A stretch of DNA of 64,000 bases, from NCBI GenBank assembly GCA_951406725.2, contig OX597822.1:102486001-102550000 (forward strand). Direction: 5' to 3'. Origin of the DNA: Octopus vulgaris. Lineage: Eukaryota. The notes below the pieces were generated by a model, which saw only the letters and a list, made by a program, of their open reading frames with translations, was not told the DNA's origin and searched no databases. Positions 3,846-61,466 of the stretch are shown here, in pieces; the stretch's first letter is position 1, and each line of letters starts with the position of its first letter. The position numbers were made by a program, and so were the translations under genes.

Positions 3846-3908
3846 TATTTATATATAAATGTGTATATATAAATATATACGAGAAAGAAGCAACAAGAAT
3901 GGATTAGT

Positions 3909-3999
3909 TTTTAGTACAATTGTTTCATACAAAGACAGGCTTTATTACAAGTTGCAAAAATTGCAGCAGATAAAAGTGTCCCGTACTCATCAGCTAAAA
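3909..3999 (-). ncRNA. Type I hammerhead ribozyme, long stem II loop (family H1, copy 2)
   Basis: Minus strand: ttttag-CTGATGA-gtac...gtat-GAAAC-aatt-GTA-ctaaaa. Stems I, II and III can all pair and the core is complete. Confidence 0.75.
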
Positions 4000-4107
4000 T
4001 ACATATGAGTTCTCCAAACATCTTAGTGGGTGAGGTTATACTCATGAAATATTGGAGATAATTTCATTAAAGGCAGATATAGGTTGCAAACAGATTTCCA
4101 AAGTTCC

Positions 4108-4320
4108 TTAATGATGATGCACAGTCTTATCACAGATTCTTAAAAGCTTATTAGTTTCACAGAGAAGATGAATTAATCCGTAGTGTAGATTTAAATTTCC
4201 AGAGATATGAGGAGGATGATGCACAGACTTATCACAGGTTTTTAAAAGCTTATTAGCTTCACAGCAAAGGTGAATTAATCCATAGTGAAGATTTAAATTT
4301 CCAGCGATATGAGGAGGAAT
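4108..4320. repeat. ~108-bp imperfect tandem duplication upstream of the H1 hammerhead
   Basis: Two diverged copies of gatgatgcacag.cttatcacag...gatttaaatttccag.gatatgaggagg. Confidence 0.8.
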
Positions 4321-5399
4321 TTCATACTCACAGACGATGAATTTATCCATTGTTAATCCACAATCATTTCATGCTATATGATAAGGTATTTGCCACATTA
4401 CTGCTCTCCATGCAAAACTGCTATGTTAAGATTTCTAAAAGCTGAAGGAATTTATTTGTGGAGCAAAGAAAAGAAAAGAAAAAGAAAAGAGACAAGGAAA
4501 AAAGAAAAAGGAGAAGAAGAAGAAAGAAGGAAAAGAAAAAGAAAAAAGAAAGAGAAACGGGGAGAAGAAAAGAAAAAGAAAAAAGGGGAAGAAGGGAGAA
4601 AAGAAAAGACGCCTATATAGAGTATACTGTGACAACTTAGAGGGAGGGGATTCTAAAGTGACCAAATACAGAAGAATTTGTAGACGGCCTAGTTAGCTTG
4701 AATCTGTAAGAATCCAGGAACTATGAGGAGAAAATTATTTTTGACCAGTACACAGCTATTTACTATCAACCTGACGTAGATGAAAGCAGATATGAATCTA
4801 AAGAGAATTTAAAGAGATAAACAAGGTCAGGGGTAGAGGGGTCAAAAGCTATCGTCAAAAGGAAATACATTAAGAGAAAAGATCTAAGTGCAACCCTAAC
4901 CAGAGGTCATTTAAATTTATTTATTTATTTATTCCTGTTACTGTCTTAAAATTGTTGCCGTTACTATCAATACATTAACAGACTACCGGTCAAAACTTAG
5001 AATTTAGTTAACAAGGTGTGATGGAATTGTCTATTATATTGAAGTTTCTCATACTACTTTCAAGGGAGTATCTTTACTTATTTAATTTTGTAATAGAATT
5101 GTTAAGCCTTAGTAACTTATTTTATTAAAGTTGTGTTACCTAAACTAGATTAAGTTCAAAAATTAAAAATTAAGATTTAAGAATTAAATAAACTCTCATT
5201 TAAGCAATGTACGAGTACTATTTATTTCCTAATGCTCAAAATCAGGTGCTGTTATAAAGAAAAAGATAACTATAGTGTGAGAACTCGCAGTTATCTACTT
5301 AAAAGTAATGCTATACTAGTAAAAACCCAGTTATATTTATTTACCTATCTTGTTACGATTATTCTATACAGTTATTCATTTAAAATATTTTAGAGTCTT

Positions 5400-6820
5400 C
5401 AATTTAGCGTGGACACAAACTTGTCCTACTTCAATATGGTTATTTAACAAGCCTCTATTTTTTCTATGCCTTAGAATTTCATAGGTCTCCATGGAGCAGA
5501 GTTGGCAACCAACCCTGCTATTTTTATACGGCATTGCTCTCCTAACTATTTCCCAATTAAGGTTATAATTCCTGTTATTATTTTTGAGTTCCCAGATCTT
5601 ACTTGAAAGTGTGGTGATACCAGCTTTATGACGTATATCTAAAAGATGAGACGTGATTTCTAACTCTTTTATTAAAATTTATTGTACAACCAATGTAAAA
5701 AAATTTGTTATTCTCAGTAGATATGGTACATTTATAGATTACGTTATTTTCCCCGCATAGACCAGGTGTCGGGCATCTTGACTTAATTCTACACTTACAC
5801 GCAGGAGGAACAACTTCAGAAGTTGGATTATTCATGGGTAGATGTCTTATGTTCCTGTTATTTTGATTATCATGAGTATAATTATCTTTATTATTATTAT
5901 TATTTTTATAGTTGGTGCTGTATTCTAAAGCATTGTTATTATTTATTGATCCTTTTGCTCCATCTTTTAGGTCTAAAGTCCTACCATGATTATTTACATT
6001 ATTGGTAATGTTACTATTATTGTTAGTATTATTATCAAACTGTATATTGTTGCTATAGATATCACTGATATTTTCCTTCTCCGCGTTTTCTCTATTAGCC
6101 TTACTTCTATTATTAACATTATTACTTCTATTAGTATCGATATTATTACTCTTATTACTGTTAATATTATTATTAGTCGTTCTGTGGTTACTGATTCCAT
6201 CCATGTTTTGATAGTTACTATTGTTGCGTTTATTGTTGTTAGTATTGTTATAATTGTTATTGGTATTCATGTTGTTATTATTATTTTTATTTTTATCTTT
6301 CCTGGCTAGTTTAATGTTGTTATTATTAATCTTAGCTATTAAAGTGGACATATTTGGGAGTGTTGAATAAGAAATCCTAACTGTTTTCTTAGAAATAATT
6401 CTATGATATCTATGAGAGATTGGGAAATTTTTTTCTAGAATTACTTTGAATTTGCTCTGTATATCCGATTGAATCGCACAGTTGAAAGGAATATTCAGCC
6501 ATATTATATCTTTTTTATTTTTATTTCTATTAAATTTCCTTGAATTAGAATCAGGGTTCATAGAATTATTATTATTCATCTTATCAAAGTCATTGTACTT
6601 ACTACTATTATTTTTTGTGTGCATCTTTGATTTATCTAATTCCATTTTATCCGAGTTACCTATGCTTTGGTCTTTACTTCTATTTGAATTATTGGGCTTG
6701 TACGCTAGATTTGCGGTTACCGTGAATCTATTTCTACTTCTATTTCGGGCCTGGTCTATATTGCTGCTTATGTGATTACTGATAACTTCTTTATTAGGAA
6801 TATGTAAGTTCCCCTTATCA
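5400..6820 (-). mobile_element. Penelope-like element, 5'-truncated, GIY-YIG endonuclease region with Naiad-type motifs
   Basis: ORF 5626-6645 contains DIIWLNIPF...RISYSTLPNM, CKCRIKSRC (CxCx5C), NVIY...YIG and RVRNH. After a frameshift near 5628 it continues TLSSKIWELK...WEIVRRA...GCQLCSMETYEIL...LLN. Confidence 0.85.
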
Positions 6821-10639: not shown

Positions 10640-11459
10640 TCTATTTTCAACCATAGCTTTTAACCATAACTAATATCAGCCATTGCTTTTTGATGGCGTC
10701 TAACAAAAAAAAAAATAAGATACAGAAAAGTAGAAGAAGGAGGCAGAGAATTTCACGCGAAAGACAAAGTGAGAGAGGGAGAGAGAGAGCCATTGCTTTC
10801 TTGACGGCGTCTAACAAAACAAATAAGATACAGAAAAGTGGAAGAACGAGGCAGAGAGTTTCACGGGAAAGACAAAGTGAGAGAGGGATAGAGAGAGCCA
10901 TTGCTTTTTTAACAGGGTCTAACAAAACAAATAAGATACAGAAAAGTGGAAGAACGAGGCAGAGAGTTTCACGAGAAAGACAAAGTGAGAGAGGGAGAGA
11001 GAGAGCCATTGCTTTTTTGACGGCGTCTAACAAAAAAAATAAGATACAGAAAAGTGGAAGAAGGAGGCAGAGAGTTTCACGAGAAAGACAAAGTGAGAGA
11101 GGGAGAGAGAGAGCCATTGCTTTTTTGACGGCGTCTAACAAAAAAAATAAGATACAGAAAAGTGGAAGAAGGAGGCAGAGAGTTTCACGAGAAAGACAAA
11201 GTGAGAGAGGGAGAGAGAGAGTAAGTGACTACGTTCATAAAAAATAAAATGTAAAATGTTTTGTTTTTTGTTTTTGAAAGACACACTATATTTTATATAT
11301 TTTATATATATTAGTTATATATATTAGTTATATATAATATAACTAATTTCAACGGATTTCGCCCAAATTTGACGTTTATATTAGTTTGGTTTGAAATAAA
11401 GAACTTGATTAGCTTAATAATCGTAACTTAATCCCGGCAAGGCCGGGTTATACTGCTAG
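10640..11459 (+). mobile_element. Non-autonomous Helitron-like element (5' end uncertain)
   Basis: 3' hairpin CCCGGC-AAG-GCCGGG followed by CTAG|T at 11456-11460; possible A|TC start at 10640. Confidence 0.6.
10678..11220 (+). repeat. Tandem minisatellite, ~108-bp unit x5, inside a Helitron-like element
   Basis: Unit agccattgc...tctaacaaa...gaaagacaaagtgagagagggagagagag repeated five times; explains the repetitive ORFs at 10647-11247. Confidence 0.92.
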
Positions 11460-11461
11460 TA

Positions 11462-11513
<52 letters not shown>

Positions 11514-11549
11514 TAACTTAATCCGGGCAAGGCCGGGTTATACTGCTAG

Positions 11550-11609
<60 letters not shown>

Positions 11610-11917
11610 CTAGCAGTATAACCCGGCCTTGCCCGGGATTAAGTTACGATTATTTAGCTAATCAAGTCGTAACTTAATCCCGGGCAAGGCCGGGTTACTG
11701 CTTCGGATTTTCAGAAATTTTGCATGACTGTATCCGAAAATTTCTTCACACAACTTGATTAGCAATTCAATATGAGCTATATGTAGACATGCACAAATTC
11801 TGTAAGTTTAAAACCTTTCATCGGATCTCCATGAATCGAACTTTCTTCAATGCAGTTAATCTTACACCCTCTTTTGTATCTACCCCTTTTGATGTTTGGG
11901 AATTCTCTGATGTTTTT

Positions 11918-12001
11918 TCGGCTGACGAGTACGAGCCATCTGTATTCACTGCATTTTTTGTAGCTTATTAAAGATGTCCTCGTACGAAACGATTGTACCG
12001 A
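11918..12001 (+). ncRNA. Type I hammerhead ribozyme, long stem II loop (family H1, intact copy)
   Basis: tcgg-CTGACGA-gtacgag-[43 nt]-ctcgtac-GAAAC-gatt-GTA-ccga. Perfect core, 7-bp stem II, predicted cleavage after 11997. Confidence 0.85.
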
Positions 12002-12161
12002 GATTTTAATCCATTCTTGTTGCTTTTTTCCTATTTGTAATCACCCCACTTGTCGTATGGTTAACACCATATAGATTTCCGGTGCATCCTAGTTAAGGAC
12101 CATATTCATGTGAATTCATTAGAATTCACTTGAATCTCAATTACTTAACCGAATATATATA

Positions 12162-12420
12162 CTAGCAGTATAACCCGGCCTTGCCCGGGATTAAGTTACG
12201 ATTATTTAGCTAATCAAGTTCTTTATTTCAAACCAAACTAAGTAATATAGACGTCAAATTTGGGTGAAATCCGTTGAAATTAGTTATATTATATATATTA
12301 TATATACATAATATAATATGATATAAATATATATGGGCAACAGACACGAACACACATACACACTCGTAAGTACGTACACCTATTGCATGTTTTGTGCACG
12401 CATGCATGTTCATAAACAGA
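12162..12420 (-). mobile_element. Helitron-like 3' end, same family as 10640-11459, opposite orientation
   Basis: Reverse complement of 11330-11459, including the hairpin and CTAG. Confidence 0.7.
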
Positions 12421-14182: not shown

Positions 14183-15085
14183 ATGGCGACCCCCGTCGCC
14201 GTACAGATGAATCTACATCCGATCATGAACTGGGACTCCGATGATATCGTGGAAGCGTTCAAGAAATTCAAACAGAAAACTCAACTAGTTTTCAAAAGTT
14301 TCCTGAAAGGCACAACAGAAGATGAAAAGGTAAGCTACATCCTTTTATGGACGGGCGAGTAGGGTCTAGACCTATTCAATAGCTGGGACATGTCAGAATC
14401 GGAATGCAATAACCCAGACACACTTTTAGGGAAATTTGAAAGGTACCTAGAGCCCAGATCGAACCATAGAATTCACAGATACGAATTCCAGGGCCTGAAA
14501 CAAGACACACAAGAAACGATTGACAATTTTCTGTCCAGACTAAAGAATGTTGCCGAAAAATGCAAATTCAAAGATAAGGACGAATGAATTGTTGATCAAT
14601 TAATATGGGGGTGTGCTCATAAAGAAGTTCAGAAATCCCTCATAGGTAAGGACGCTCTCCAGTTGATAGAAGCAGTAGACACTGCAAGAGCATTCGAAGC
14701 CACTACCAAACAAATGGCCTCACTTACCTTACAAACAAGCTCACTAGGCAGCAGTGTAGATATTGTATCTAGGCACAGGACGAAACATACCCGCAAACAA
14801 AGAACATGCCAGTACTGTGGTACAGAGCATGAGTTCGACAACCGGAAGAAATGTCCTGCATTCGGTACACACTGCAAAGCATGTGGAAAACCCAACCACT
14901 GGGAAAAAATGTGTAGGCTAATAAAATCCCAGAAAAACAAGCCCCAATTTTCAAAGAGGAGCGGAAATAGAAGAAGAGGTATACATGCCCAACAACAAGA
15001 ACAAAACACCTCAGAGGAGGAATTCTTGGCAGTCGGCACAATAAATGTGCATGAGATGGGAAATGACGACCAGAAAAAAAAATGA
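14183..15085 (+). pseudogene. Gypsy gag with two CCHC knuckles; two in-frame stops
   Basis: ATG at 14183; TAG at 14360 and TGA at 14585; CQYCGTEH...C and CKACGKPNHWEKMC. Confidence 0.85.
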
Positions 15086-18000
15086 GGCATACACAACGAT
15101 AAGAATACAAAAGAAGTCTGGCAAGAAACGAACAAGCATAGACTTAAGGCTAAAGATTGACACTGGAGCCCCGAGTGATATCTTGCCTGTCAACCTCTAC
15201 AAAAAGATGTTCCCAGAACACATAACACAAGAGGATAAAGTCAAAGAAGGAATCCTCACACCAAGTGATGTAATCCTCACTGCGTACGGAGGTACTAGGA
15301 TTCTACAACTGGGTAAAACAACAATCACAGGGACACACAAAGGAAAAACAATCAAGTGTTCTTTTTATGTCACAAGAACAGAAGGACCAGCAATTCTTGG
15401 ACTCAATACCTGCAAAAAGCTAAATATTGTGTCAATCAATGGAGAAGTGAAGGTAGCTCCGAGCAGGATTGACAGAGATATGCCTATCAAAGACCGACCA
15501 CAAACAAAGAAGAACTGATAAGCATGTACCCTGAATGCTTTGACGATACAGTCGGGTGCTTTGTGAAATGTCGATACCATATAACAGTCGACCCCAATAT
15601 CAAACCAATTGTTCACCCACCTCGCCGCGTCCCTCTAGAACTAAAAGAGAAGCTGAAGACAGAGTTGGACAGAATGGAAAAAAAAGAAATAATCACCAAA
15701 GTGACACGACCAACAGACTGGGTGAATTCAATTGTAATCAAGGAAAAACCCAATGGTACCCTACGGATATGCCTCGACCCAAGGGACCTGAACAAGGCAT
15801 TAAAAAGAGAGTACCATCCAATCCCAACCCTTGAAGAAATCACACCATCATTGGCTGGATCCAAATTATTCAGCAAACTGGATGCCAGTAATGGGTACTG
15901 GAATGTAAAGATAGACAAAGAGTCATCCATGCTCACTACCTTCAACACACCATTTGGCAAATATCGATTCAACCATCTCCTATTTGGATTGAAGGTGAGC
16001 CAAGATGTTTTCCAGCGCCAAATAGATGAGACCTACCATGGCTGCAAGGGAGCAATTGGGATAGCAGATGCCATCCAAGTGCAAGGCAAGGACGAAACCA
16101 CACATGACTTCAATTTACATGCAGCTATGGAGAAAACCCGACAAGCAGGCATCAAACTCAATGCAGACAAGTGTGTGACAAAAGCAAAGGAGTGCAAATT
16201 CTTTGGAATTATATACTCTGCAGAGGGAGTTAAACCAGACCCCGCTAAAGCGGAAGCCATCAGGGACATTAAAGAACTCAAAGACAAGAAGGAACTCAGG
16301 AGCTTCCTGGGGCTCATTCACTACATGGGAGCCTTCATACCCAAGCTGGCCGATCACACTGCAAATCTCCGAGAGCTAAACAAAGATGACATAGAATTTG
16401 ATTGGTGTGCTTCACACACACAGGATTTCAAAACAATCAAAAAGCTCATCAGTAAGGAGACAACTCTGCAATACTATGACAGACACAAACCAGTAACACT
16501 CCAAGTCGATGCTTCTATGAGAGGAGTTGGCGCAGCACTGATACAGGAAGGTAAACCCATTGCATATGCCTCGAAAGCTCTCTCACCCACAGAGACAAGG
16601 TACGCAAATATTGAAAGGGAACTCCTGGCAGTAGTATATGGATGTGAAAAGTTCCATACATACCTGTATGGCAGACATTTCAATATTGAAACAGACCATC
16701 GCCCACTAGAACAAATACATAGAAAAAAACTGACAAAAGCACCAGCCAGACTGCAAAGATTACTGTTAAGGCTTCAAACATACGACTATGATATTAGGTA
16801 CAAGCCAGGAAAAGACCTGATATTGGCGGATGCTCTTTCCAGACTATCCTCACATGATAAACAGGAGATGGAAGGACTAAGCATAAAGGTCCACCACATT
16901 ATAAATGTAACGACTACAAAGCTAGCAGAAATCAAAGAAGAAACCAGCAATGATGAAGAACTCCAACTCCTTATTCAGATGGTGATTCAGGGGTGGCCAG
17001 AGAAGAGACATCAGGTGCAGCCCCTCATTCGTGAATATTGGGCCATCCATGATGATATATCGGTGGAGAATGGAATCCTGATGGCTGGATCCCGAATAAT
17101 TATACCCAAGTCAATGCAAAAAGAGATTCTTGACAAGATCCACCAAGGGCATCTAGGAATGGAGAAATGCAAGCTCCGAGCCAAGTCAGCAGTGTATTGG
17201 GTAGGCATGTACAAAGACAAAAGAAAAGACAGTTTCTACATGCCACATCTGTCAAAAGTACAGAAACTCACAACAAAAGGAGGAAATGATATCTACTGAC
17301 ATCCCAAGAAGGCCATGGCAAACTATTGGAGTAGATCTGTTCACAGAGAGCCAAGAATGGTATTTGATAATGACCTGCTACTACTCCAAATTTCCATTTG
17401 TGAGAAAAGTGAAAGACCTGAGAGCCAAAACAATCGCTACAGTGGCTCGAGGACTTCTAGCAGAGCAAGGAATACCAGAGCAGATCATATGTGACAATGG
17501 AACCCAGTTCACATCGCAAGAATTCAAAAAGCTAGCCGATGAATATGGGTTCAATATTACCACCTCATCTCCACACTACCCCAAAGGCCATGGGTTTATA
17601 GAAAGACAGGTGCAGACAGTGAAGAGAACACTAATCAAATGCCGAGAGACTAAGGAAGACTCACGCCTGGCACTTCTGTCCCTGCGAGCAACACCACTGA
17701 GGGCTGACATGAAATCCCCAGCAGAAATGCTGAATGGCAGGAAGTACAAAACTACCCTGACCAGGAAGAGACAAGGGCAAAGCTAGCAGCCAATCAAGAA
17801 CAATCACAGAAATATTACAACAAACATGCACAATACTTACCTGAGATACTTGGAGGACAGCATGTGCATACTCAAGATCCCACGACTAAAACATGGATCC
17901 CAGCACAGGTTGTCAGTAGAGCTGAAACTCCAAGATCATATGTAATAGAAACGGAACCTGGTAGGCAGCTGAGACGCAACAGGGTCCACATCCGCCCAAC

Positions 18001-18184
18001 ACCAAAGCTGTCGAGGACAACGTGTACAACACCTGCTGCATCAGTGACAACACCCACAGAATCATCACCCCAACGGGCACCAACCACCCATCAGCCGCCC
18101 AACAACACACCTCAGACACCGGTGCGAAGCACGAGAGCCACCAGATGGAGAAAGAACATTCTGCCACCGGTTCGATACCGTTAA
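15082..18184 (+). pseudogene. Gypsy pol (protease, RT, RNase H, integrase), frameshifted
   Basis: LKIDTGA protease; LRICLDPRDLN, KLDASNGYW and IADA (catalytic D lost); VDAS...YANIERELLAV; H..H zinc-binding region; GVDLF, CDNGTQF and FIERQV DDE core. Confidence 0.93.
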
Positions 18185-58470: not shown

Positions 58471-60280
58471 AAGGTGGCGAGCTGGCAAAATCATTAGCAC
58501 GCCAGGCGAAATGCTTAGTGGTATTTCGTTTGCCATTACGTTCTGAGTTCAAATTCTGCCGAGGTCGACTTTGCCTTTCATCCTTTCGGGGTCGATAAAT
58601 TAAGTACCAGTTACGCACTGGGGTCGATATAATTGACTTAATCCGTTCATCTGCCCTTGTTTGTCCTCTCTGTATTTAGCCCCTTGTGGGTAGTAAAGAA
58701 ATAGGTATTTCGTCTGCTGTTACATTCTGAGTTCAAATCCACCAAGGTCAACTTTGCCTTTCATCCTTTCAGGGTTGATTAAATAAGTACCAGTTATGCA
58801 CTGGAATTGATGTAATCGACTTAATCCCATTGTTTGTCCTTGTTTATCCCCTCTATGTATTTAGCCCCCTGTGGGCAATAAAGAAATAAATATTGATTTC
58901 AAATTTTGGCACAAAGTCAGTAGTTTGGAGGAGTGGGTAAGTTGATTACATCAACCCGCCCCAACCTTTGGGCTGGCTGGTGCCCATTCCCCTTTGCTAT
59001 CCTGAGGCTTTTTTGGAGCTGGATTTTCTACAGGGAGCATGCCCTTGCTTACCCCCAAACTCAGTTTCTAGACATGAGTGGTCCTGAGACCAAGGCTTCT
59101 ACCATAATTTTTAAGAAATGTGGTGGAAAAATAGTTCAGGAAGGCAGGGACGCTACTCCTTGAGACCCCTTTTGAAGCCCCTCTACCATTATGTTAATAT
59201 TACTATTTCTATTAAGGTGGCAAGCTGGCAAAATCATTACCATACCAGGAAAAATGCTTGGCAGCATTTTGTCCATTCTGAGTTCAAATCCACCAAGGTC
59301 GACTTTGCCTTTCATCTTTTCAGAGTTGATTTAAATAAGTACCTGTTACGCACTGAGATTGATGTAATCAACTTAATCCCTTTGCTTGCCCTTGTTTGTC
59401 CCCTCTATGTTTAGCCCCCTGTGGGCAAAGAAATAAATATTGATTTCAAATTTTGGCACAAGGTCAGTAGTTTGGAGTTGTGGGTAAGTTATGTTCCAAG
59501 TTCTAATTCAACCAAGGTTGACTTTGCCTTTCATCCTTTCAGGGTTGATATAATCAATTTAATCCCTCCTCCATAACTTCTGGCCTTGTACTAAAATCGG
59601 AAATCAATATTAATATTGCTATTAATAATAAGGCAGTGAGCTGGCAGAATCATTAGCACGCCAGCCAAAATGCTTAGTGGTATGTCATCCATCAAAAGCG
59701 GCAAGCTGGCAGAAATGTTAGCACGCCGGGCATAATGCTAAGCCGTATTTCGTCTGCCGTTACATTCTGAGTTCAAATTCCGCCGAGGTCGACTTTGCCT
59801 TTCATCCTTTCAGGGTCAATTAAATAAGTACCAGTTATGCACTAGGGTCGATAAAATCGACTTAATCTGTGTGTCTGTCCTTGTTTGTCCCCTCTATGTT
59901 TAGCCCCTTGTGGGTAGTAAAGAAATAGGTATTTCACTTGCCGCTACATTCTAAGTTCAAATTCCGCCGAGGTCGACTTTGCCTTTCATCCTTTCGGAGT
60001 TGATTAAATAAGTACCAGTTATGCACTGGGGTCGATAAAATTGACTTAATTCATTTGTCTGTCCTTGTTTGTCCTCTCTGTGTTTAGCCCCTTGTGGGTA
60101 GTAAATAAATAGGTATTTCATCCATCATTACATTCTGAGTTCAAATTCCATTGAGATCAACTTTGCCTTTCATCCTTTCAGGGTCAATAAATTAAGTACC
60201 AGTAGGGCACTGGGGGTCGATGTAGTTGACTTACCCTCGCCCCTGAAATTGCTAGCGTTGTGCCAAAATTTGAAACCAAT
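58471..60280 (+). mobile_element. Cluster of family A SINE monomers and multimers
   Basis: Units at 58471-58890 (x2), 59215-59435, ~59495-59610 and 59630-60280 (x3 or more). Confidence 0.88.
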
Positions 60281-60338
60281 ATTTAATGTTATGCACACTA
60301 CAACCTCTTGTCATTTCTATTTTAAACAGGAAAGCATC

Positions 60339-61466
60339 ATGAATGAGAATGAATCGCAATCCAATGAGAGAACCCTTACTGAAGATTTAAACAGGAACAC
60401 CTTGGAAGACAATCCAGAATACAGATTTCAGAATGCTTGCTGTCTTCATAGACTTTTCAGAAAAATTTTTAGATGTCTATTTTTGCTAAAAAGATTTTCT
60501 TCAAATGCACAAAAATATATTATTTGGATTTTGATAATTGTACTGTCTCTGTCTGGTGGACTTTATTTGCGATGCTATGTTTTCCAGAAAAGATCTATGG
60601 TTCTCTTACCATTAGATATTTCTGTTGTAGACACAATTGTGCCTCTCTTTTGCTCCAGCGTATCAATTTGCTATAAAGGAAGCAAAATTAAAGTTCATGT
60701 TTTATCAGAGAAGCCTGAACTTAGCAACGAACAAGTCCAACACAGCTATACAGATAGCTTTATCTTGAGGGAAGAAAATGAGAAAATATGGCCCATAAGT
60801 TTACAACAGAATTCGTCTTTATCAATGACACTGTGTAGTGAAGGACTATCAGAGATTGGTTTAATTACAGGCAAAGAAAACTTTGAGAAATGGGAATCGG
60901 AGAAAGGATGCAGTCAGTGTTTGGAGAGTTTTACTGTTGATTCTACTTGCCTGAAATTCAATTTGTCACAACCAACTGCTAATATGCACTATATTGTTTT
61001 CAAAAGTATTGGAAAAGGATCACTTATTAAGGCAGATATTTCCCTGAAAAGAACATTGTATAAAATTCAAGGAAGCGATTTTCATTTCAAAAAGAACAGC
61101 AACTGTTTTAAAATACCAGTGAAAATGCAATCATCCGAATATATTTTATTGCAGTCTTTGTCAAAAAAATGGGAGTTTATTCCAGTAACAATCATATACA
61201 ATACTAGAAATTATATATTTATCATATTCTTTCTTGTTCTACCATGTTTTCTGGGGTCATTGATTTTTTCTATGACAGAGCGGTTATTTAATAACTATTC
61301 TGATGAAGATTTAGAAATTGAAGATCATACAAGCACATTGTCAGTTATTGAGTACCTTGACTCGAATAGTCCACCATCATACGATAGCATCTTCCCTGAA
61401 AATGACCCTAACACACTACCATCTTACCAAAAATGTGCTGAAATCGGAATCCCAAAAACATCTTGA
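60339..61466 (+). CDS. Two-TM membrane protein, APD1-4-like (DUF4792/DUF4793-type) luminal region, C-terminal PY motifs; 375 aa from this ATG
   Basis: Uninterrupted non-repetitive ORF. Splice acceptor tttctattttaaacag|G at 60329/60330 lies just before the ATG. TM segments IIWILIIVLSLSGGLYL and YIFIIFFLVLPCFLGSLIF; PPSY and LPSY; AATAAA at 61547. The family assignment is by motif recall only. Confidence 0.8.
   Translation: MNENESQSNERTLTEDLNRNTLEDNPEYRFQNACCLHRLFRKIFRCLFLLKRFSSNAQKYIIWILIIVLSLSGGLYLRCYVFQKRSMVLLPLDISVVDTIVPLFCSSVSICYKGSKIKVHVLSEKPELSNEQVQHSYTDSFILREENEKIWPISLQQNSSLSMTLCSEGLSEIGLITGKENFEKWESEKGCSQCLESFTVDSTCLKFNLSQPTANMHYIVFKSIGKGSLIKADISLKRTLYKIQGSDFHFKKNSNCFKIPVKMQSSEYILLQSLSKKWEFIPVTIIYNTRNYIFIIFFLVLPCFLGSLIFSMTERLFNNYSDEDLEIEDHTSTLSVIEYLDSNSPPSYDSIFPENDPNTLPSYQKCAEIGIPKTS

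Follow-up and report, generated by a model that had tools for sequence, protein, structure and literature searches.

The window analysed here (the whole 64-kb stretch of Octopus vulgaris DNA) contains exactly two type I hammerhead matches in a descriptor search, referred to below as copy A (+) and copy B (-). The first-pass annotation had described a type I core, a 7-bp stem II, a 43-nt spacing and an ATTAAA hexamer at copy A, all of which the descriptor found; the diverged homologue reported at 3909-3999 (-), with its core and AATAAA, was returned as the second match, and the flanks said to be common to A and B are present. The features of both copies, in window positions, are:

11703..12151 (+): copy A, a 5'-truncated 3' end of subfamily A that comprises the last part of the 3' UTR, the pLTR and the tail, with a short TA run behind it
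11916..12003 (+): hammerhead motif A (type I descriptor, pair counts)
11916-21/11998-12003 (+): stem I of motif A
11922-28 (+): core CTGACGA of motif A
11929-35/11979-85 (+): base of helix II of motif A, 7 bp
11936..11978 (+): extended helix II arm of motif A (the 43-nt loop of the first-pass annotation), an interrupted hairpin with an apical stem at 11948-11964
11967..11972 (+): ATTAAA hexamer, candidate poly(A) signal, on the 3' strand of arm A and ending 25 nt before the predicted cut
11986-89 (+): GAAA of motif A (GAAAC present)
11989-96 (+): helix III segment of motif A, self-complementary
after A11997 (+): predicted cut of motif A
12011..12031 (+): conserved U/GU-rich block and short 3' end (about +34), candidate downstream element or RT-start motif
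12032..12151 (+): optional tail of ~120 nt, to the long 3' end (+154)
3880..6820 (-): copy B, a 5'-truncated 2.9-kb copy of subfamily B that ends at the short 3' end and is flanked by two (TA)n runs
3909..3999 (-): hammerhead motif B, with a 60-nt helix II arm and 46 nt between the stem II strands
after A3915 (-): predicted cut of motif B
3941..3946 (-): AATAAA hexamer within arm B, with its end 26 nt ahead of the predicted cut
5376..6819 (-): C-terminal half of the PLE ORF, with Asn-rich linker, CxCx5C, GIY-YIG-type endonuclease, CxxC and CxH

A loop-blind hammerhead pattern had 2,688 exact matches in the genome (2.8 Gb) and none for the reversed control; the two motifs of the window are therefore not chance occurrences. 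DNA searches of the genome yielded 1,699 candidates with the copy A query and 1,525 with the copy B query, and the full-length matches among the 40 candidates scored per search were 98%-100% identical. The 7-bp stem II of motif B depends on four G-U pairs, and the fold of this motif was no better than its own shuffles (z = -0.1 to +0.2). Rfam gave no gathering-level match in the window and no hammerhead at E<=10 within 11600-12300, and the Rfam miRNA matches near copy A correspond to a palindrome at about 11605-11710. Three copies, direct and inverted, of the initial 40-90 nt of another repeat flank copy A (11509-11702, 12153-12241) and form a 45-bp palindrome at 11612-11702. The flanking repeat copies may represent target DNA copied during insertion; the start of the repeat resembles Helitron-type ends.

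On motif evidence, we assign both hammerheads to the pLTRs of a recently amplified, protein-coding Penelope-like element (PLE) of the Hydra clade. The element consists of a pLTR, an RT+EN ORF of ~950 aa and a second pLTR, inserted in (TA)n, and the order hammerhead, 941-984-aa ORF, 3' UTR, hammerhead was recovered in 6 of 20 fetched loci, which were picked mostly for long open frames. The two hammerheads are separated by ~4.6 kb in loci L099-L101, and the 3' UTR measures 1.4-1.5 kb. Over 460 nt, copy A shares 98% identity with the 3' ends of L061 and L062, upstream of which lies an EN ORF in both loci and an RT ORF also in L062, while copy B is 89.6% identical to the full-length element L099 over 3,168 columns. 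The earlier view that there is no credible coding sequence nearby does not hold, given that the C-terminal half of the PLE ORF, endonuclease included, lies at 6819-5376 (-) and is continuous with copy B. A 420-codon frame at 6888-5629 (-) ends in the CxCx5C linker and the GIY-YIG-type endonuclease; following a frameshift near 5636, the ORF runs on to a stop at 5376, 1.4 kb ahead of motif B. It matches residues 481-957 of the 957-aa element protein P0001 at 73%-90% (tblastn).

P0001 carries RWK (RIRWK) and DKT (ADKTG) in its N-terminal part, YRDD, then CxCx5C (CKCRIKSKC), CxxC (CQLC), CxH (CVH) and a C-terminal IY...YIG segment, and is without CCHH; the CxCx5C, CxxC and CxH motifs are also found in the window ORF at 5790-5400 (-). 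RT and EN were read by motif, and Pfam and PDB sequence searches with the element ORF gave no match. The 41 protein homologues identified share 32%-70% identity (70% over 42% of the query for a protein named from Octopus sinensis), two being labelled 'hypothetical', one bearing a mis-fitting name and the others unnamed. Long Asn-rich inserts (window 5850-6330 and 6570-6750 (-), and P0001) extend the ORF to ~957 aa vs ~710 aa in the homologues; similar inserts occur in Adineta Penelopes (PMC3846280). Inverted 5' copies and an optional tail are present among the element copies, and both are described for PLEs in the same paper (PMC3846280). Neighbouring genomic copies are mostly inverted pairs or both ends of one ORF.

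The Hydra clade comprises C-terminal EN+ PLEs, including Hydra-1_Obim of Octopus bimaculoides, with RWK, DKT, CxCx5C, CxxC and CxH as diagnostics, and is reported to have (TA)n targets and canonical hammerheads (Craig et al. 2021, PMC8557442). The window element resembles the clade in its single RT + GIY-YIG ORF with RWK/DKT, CxCx5C, CxxC and CxH but no CCHH, and in its pLTR hammerhead, (TA)n target, inverted 5' copies and optional tail. It departs from the published description in the ~4.6 kb between its hammerheads ('generally <3 kb' in the clade, a tendency and not a diagnostic), and in its Asn-rich inserts, 1.4-1.5-kb 3' UTR and ~120-nt tail.

We assessed the ribozyme structure across 23 natural copies that were hand-picked from 161 distinct copies to span subfamilies, the structure being drawn from the same copies. 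Among these representatives 95.2% of 483 cells were paired and 33 two-sided changes were counted, neither value being reached in 500 shuffles, and six pairs showed a two-sided change (a count reached in 49 of 500 shuffles); these pairing statistics are inflated by sequence kinship and by the derivation of the structure from the same sequences. Slid-structure controls paired at only 31%-48%. The compensatory stem I changes that the first-pass annotation had pointed out between A and B were borne out, with pairing kept in 23/23 representatives at both variable pairs via G-U intermediates (C-G, U-G, U-A and G-C, G-U, A-U). One stem II pair shifts from G-C to U-A by transversions, which bears on the worry that CpG decay had generated such changes. 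A candidate diverged subfamily, L067:6403-6542, proved to be a copy with an insertion and was rejected.

The core CUGANGA / GAAA / UH and helices I and II are present, as in type I hammerheads of PLEs. Helix III is self-complementary (CGATCG, CGATTG, CAATTG) and 100% paired as a dimer in 23/23 representatives, with predicted dimer helix III duplexes of -5.8 to -10 kcal/mol. The window hammerheads thus share with the PLE hammerheads of PMC4209133 the core, the G10.1-C11.1 pair, a short stem I, a U-rich 5' flank and a palindromic helix III predicted to need a dimer. Hammerheads of this dimer type cleave poorly in vitro (PMC4209133), and cleavage of a PLE hammerhead was reported to need the protein of the element (Poseidon PLE, PMC11167929).

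The '43-nt loop' of the earlier description was correct as a spacing; folding and covariation indicate that it is not a loop but an interrupted, covarying extension of helix II, predicted to form a hairpin of 57-60 nt. The arm of A folds at z = -3.7 and that of B at z = -0.7, with z below -2 in 6 of 8 arms folded. The apical helix of the arm shows 90% pairing, and 2 of its 7 pairs carry two-sided changes. In local context, the minimum-energy fold is more stable than the hammerhead fold by 3.5-6.7 kcal/mol in 12 of 13 copies and by 20 kcal/mol in the remaining one. The published descriptor of PMC4209133 allows a loop 2 of 3-10 nt and would miss an arm of 57-60 nt, and loop 2 measures 3-10 nt in all 24 published Hydra rows; the published Hydra-1_Obim hammerhead has an 8-nt loop and differs in sequence. 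Loops of ~30 nt have been published for two plant PLE-X hammerheads (File S2 of PMC8557442). A second long-arm pattern matched the octopus genome 576 times (control 1). About nine more hammerhead families with helix II arms of 31-71 nt were seen in the genome, most without the hexamer (L226-L255, L062, L066, L087, L107, L113, L118, L204, L275); AATAAA lies 3-6 nt past the cut in L066 and L118. The clade of these other long-arm families is indicated by two weak tblastn matches. Long arms thus seem common among PLEs of this genome, and Rfam and descriptors with loop 2 <=10 nt miss thousands of long-arm PLE hammerheads within it (2,688 and 576 pattern matches).

Among the 161 distinct copies the hexamer was AATAAA in 112 and ATTAAA in 46, with a private mutation in 3, so that it is kept in 158/161, a count biased by the many copies found through their similarity to the window copies. 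The six hexamer columns need a single parsimony change (AAT to ATT) when mapped on a tree of the 23 representatives, compared with 1.35 changes for each of 91 other non-core columns, and 0 of 71 six-column windows were as low (P about 0.007-0.009); the test is favoured by design, since the hexamer served as anchor of the alignment and is carried by each of the 23 representatives. The conservation of core and hexamer across genomic copies that the first-pass annotation had anticipated was found. Among subfamilies the hexamer survives down to 59% identity, switching solely between AATAAA and ATTAAA, and AATAAA recurs in one more subfamily, whose arm is different (L279, L296, L298). In an AT-richer long-arm family, just 1 of 19 arms contains it. 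The strand facing the hexamer varies without compensation (TGTATT, TATATT, TTTATC, TTTATA, TTAAAT), and pairing consequently explains the conservation of the hexamer poorly. Predicted accessibility of the hexamer ranges from 0.01 to 0.9 among subfamilies. Taken with the caveat of an anchored, hand-picked alignment, the hexamer is under sequence constraint, as a poly(A) signal would be.

The position of the hexamer also agreed with what had been proposed (~25 nt before the cut): it starts 30-32 nt and ends 24-26 nt before the predicted cut (21 nt in one subfamily). A distance of 24-26 nt from the hexamer falls in the usual range of poly(A) sites. A T precedes the hexamer in 22 of 23 representatives. 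Downstream, the U/GU-rich block at +13 to +27 past the cut is conserved (0.5 changes per column), but a look-alike precedes the long 3' end, so that the block may act in RT initiation and not in polyadenylation.

Contigs of four from 14 runs guessed to be RNA were aligned to L103:6250-6990, and in each run at least one contig bridges the hexamer and the cut. The loose contig ends listed near the two family ends consisted of (TA)n, and none of the 19 listed was a poly(A) run. Since contigs are blind to RNA ends, these observations weigh neither for nor against polyadenylation. In two of the guessed-RNA runs, clusters of A>G or T>C changes were observed across the hammerhead and hexamer of a B-type pLTR (L103:6513-6712), comprising 22 and 12 differences at a depth under 5 and with no matching DNA run. 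The pattern may reflect A-to-I hyper-editing in RNA duplexes formed by inverted copies of the pLTR.

We also asked where the hexamer lies in other Hydra-type elements. Related proteins are encoded by 77 metagenome loci, 28 of which contain sense hammerheads (n = 33), vs 5 antisense matches. The helix II arms measure 10-25 nt in 28 metagenome families (19 plus 9 held out), and the hexamer lies inside helix II in none of the 28. Instead, in 11 of 19 families with full context A(A/T)TAAA starts between positions -1 and +8 relative to the cut (2.0 expected from the same windows shuffled, with the -2..+14 window around the cut chosen after the matches were viewed), and in 4 of the 19 it lies just upstream; L119 and L156, both without the hexamer, are possibly chance calls among the 19. 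For the held-out families, the hexamer was near the cut in 2 of 9 (0.46 expected). In these other families it is mostly preceded by A or C, not T. Among the 24 distinct Hydra rows in File S2 of PMC8557442, we found the hexamer downstream in 3 and upstream in 5 (by eye), and in the supplementary alignment of PMC4209133, whose authors label the flank 'AU-rich', A(A/U)UAAA is downstream in 8 of the 44 rows inspected (by eye). The link between hexamer and hammerhead is recurrent, not universal.

Between the hammerhead and the start codon of Hydra-type PLEs we noted a conserved hairpin, GCTC-N(4-24)-GAGCACT, often present twice, ~60-70 nt apart (examples: L175:283-360, L138:2311-2395, L154:101-195). 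It occurs in sense in 42 of the 77 loci (L119-L195), vs 4 in antisense and 1 in the reversed control, and may serve the two 3' ends as an RT-binding or RT-start element. The lineage of the window is without the exact motif and has a CACC/GGTG hairpin at a similar place.

We then considered how the ends of integrated copies relate to the predicted cut. Among 146 A/B-type copies (15 C-family copies were left out of the count for want of a reference), 75 end 21-50 nt and 62 end 111-190 nt past the cut, 6 continue into the ORF, 1 falls between the classes and 2 end within 20 nt of the cut. The element thus has two 3' ends, at about +35 and +155-160 from the cut, each followed by (TA)n; a TA run follows 131 of 139 copy ends, in keeping with a (TA)n target. 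A poly(A) tail was found in 0 of 146 A/B-type copies, and a pattern describing copies with a tail within 28 nt of the arm had 0 matches across the genome. In full elements the tail runs on to an ATG 208-210 nt past the cut (190 and 193 nt in two copies). Of 24 start-codon copies inspected by eye, 16 have a whole or partial hammerhead upstream, 8 begin further down and 0 begin at the cut. A similar ATCT...TT(G/A)CTT motif precedes both 3' ends, and a TATA-like and then a C-rich stretch follow; nicked (TA)n would prime on the TATA-like stretch.

Since copies end beyond the cut, lack poly(A) tails and do not start at the cut, the template of integrated copies is probably RNA that escaped both cuts. 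Ribozyme or CPSF cleavage was rejected as the source of the integrated ends on the same grounds, and with it the suggestion that the two cleavages set the end of the transposing RNA: 144 of 146 copies extend >20 nt beyond the cut, and poly(A) tails are absent from all 146. This agrees with work on the Poseidon element PAc of Anolis, whose tail is delimited by two internal start sites of the RT and in which uncleaved RNA serves as the main substrate (Frangieh et al. 2024, PMC11167929).

Taken together, these observations lead us to regard the conserved A(A/T)TAAA in the extended helix II of this Hydra-clade pLTR as a likely leaky poly(A) signal, alongside a slow, dimer- or protein-dependent ribozyme and with copied templates that bypass the signal (probability about 0.55 for this reading as a whole). 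Given a helix III that is short and self-complementary, the ribozyme would cut slowly, and solely as a dimer or with the help of a protein. Some transcripts would be terminated at the 3' pLTR by the hexamer together with the U/GU-rich block, yielding polyadenylated mRNA whose end lies at the ribozyme site or just short of it; a role of the hexamer in ending translated mRNA is plausible. Weak pairing within the arm would keep the signal partly hidden, in the 5' pLTR as well. Reverse transcription into nicked (TA)n, starting at two internal sites, would then be confined to RNA escaping both cuts. A bolder extension, which we hold tentatively and with the odds against it, is that the Hydra-clade pLTR hammerhead belongs to a composite 3'-end module that couples it to a poly(A) signal, placed just past the cut in many families and within helix II here, where the CPSF site would fall on the scissile bond and folding of the arm would sort polyadenylated mRNA, ribozyme-cut RNA and read-through template. 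Were this true, the module would be a ribozyme-built counterpart of the retroviral polyA hairpin and an answer to the purpose of PLE hammerheads.

Other explanations of the hexamer were weighed against the leaky poly(A) signal. Its conservation might reflect a structural role in the RNA, such as a tertiary contact, or binding of a protein, such as the RT of the element, and not polyadenylation, as suggested by pairing of the hexamer with the U-rich 5' strand in several subfamilies, the zero count of polyadenylated integrated copies and the long arms without the hexamer in other families of the genome. However, the facing strand differs with no matching change in the hexamer, the sole fixed change gives ATTAAA, and related elements have the same hexamer outside the ribozyme, which makes this explanation unlikely in our view. 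We consider it improbable that the hexamer is a TATA-like box of a pLTR promoter whose mRNA starts near the cut, just behind the 5' hammerhead. Its start 30-32 nt before the cut is the usual TATA-to-start distance, the preceding T is almost invariant (22/23 representatives), the ATG follows 208-210 nt behind the cut (190 and 193 nt in two copies), and promoters are known in pLTRs (PMC2377424, PMC3846280); yet 0 of 24 ORF-start copies begin at +1. A poly(A) signal fits better than a TATA box because elsewhere, in the other Hydra-type families, the hexamer lies past the cut and mostly follows A or C.

The persistence of the hexamer to 59% identity, its presence in the subfamily with a different arm (L279, L296, L298) and its rarity in the AT-richer long-arm family (1 of 19 arms) all argue against a functionless AT-rich accident inherited by close subfamilies. 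Such an accident, to which we give a low probability, draws on the limited power of a hexamer-anchored test with six columns and a total tree length of 1.6, and on the weak held-out set (2/9); were the hexamer inert, nothing but the unusual length of helix II would set the locus apart from an ordinary PLE end. The original proposal of a non-coding, self-cleaving retroelement family, its RNA end set by ribozyme or CPSF cleavage, stands as to a retroelement hammerhead family, but its non-coding part falls, since the element has an RT+EN ORF. Most copies, copy A included, are indeed short and non-coding, and retrozymes have been reported as pLTR-derived (bioRxiv 10.64898/2026.07.22.740005). Nevertheless, the short copies have ragged 5' ends and are 98%-99% identical to the ends of coding copies, their 3' ends lie 35 or 155-160 nt past the cut, and no tandem array or unit extends across either window motif. 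Continuity with the RT/EN ORF and the lack of tandem units led us to reject a retrozyme-like non-coding family; it is refuted for both window copies, and overall we give it almost no credence.

Published work already covers PLE pLTR hammerheads, the Hydra clade and an octopus Hydra family, and the function of the hammerheads has been called 'still unclear' (PMC8557442), with cleavage dispensable for insertion in vitro (PMC11167929). The window element resembles PAc (PMC11167929) in its two tail-defining 3' ends, uncleaved template and AT-rich target; it differs from PAc, which belongs to another clade and whose ORF starts inside the hammerhead, and a poly(A) signal was not found in the part of the PAc description examined. 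With the polyA hairpin in the R region of the HIV-1 LTR (PMC2645353) it shares an AAUAAA within a hairpin of both terminal repeats, which offers an analogy for a repressed or leaky signal, although HIV-1 is an unrelated element without a ribozyme, in which the function has been shown; here it is proposed. Animal non-LTR retrozymes likewise have a type I hammerhead and pLTR kinship (PMC7229834; bioRxiv 10.64898/2026.07.22.740005), but they are described there as non-coding tandem repeats, whereas the window copies are truncated copies of a coding element. A hammerhead beside a poly(A) signal is known from the Clec2 3' UTR (PMC6765202, PMC6155905). The literature searched, including passages of PMC6765202, PMC2377424, PMC3846280, PMC6155905 and PMC7229834, yielded no published tie of a poly(A) signal to PLE hammerheads and nothing on the mode in which PLE transcripts end; Repbase entries or preprint supplements may describe long arms or the hexamer.

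The remainder of the window holds further repeats. A Ty3/Gypsy-like gag-protease-RT-RNase H-integrase region, judged from translations, extends in several frames over 14588-18184 (+), a 108-bp tandem array occupies 10678-11221, and a 184-bp repeat is present in at least ten copies, some of them tandem, across 22830-60233. An open frame of 453 codons at 60105-61466 (+), which contains two hydrophobic stretches and, close to its end, a PPSY motif, possibly encodes a host membrane protein.
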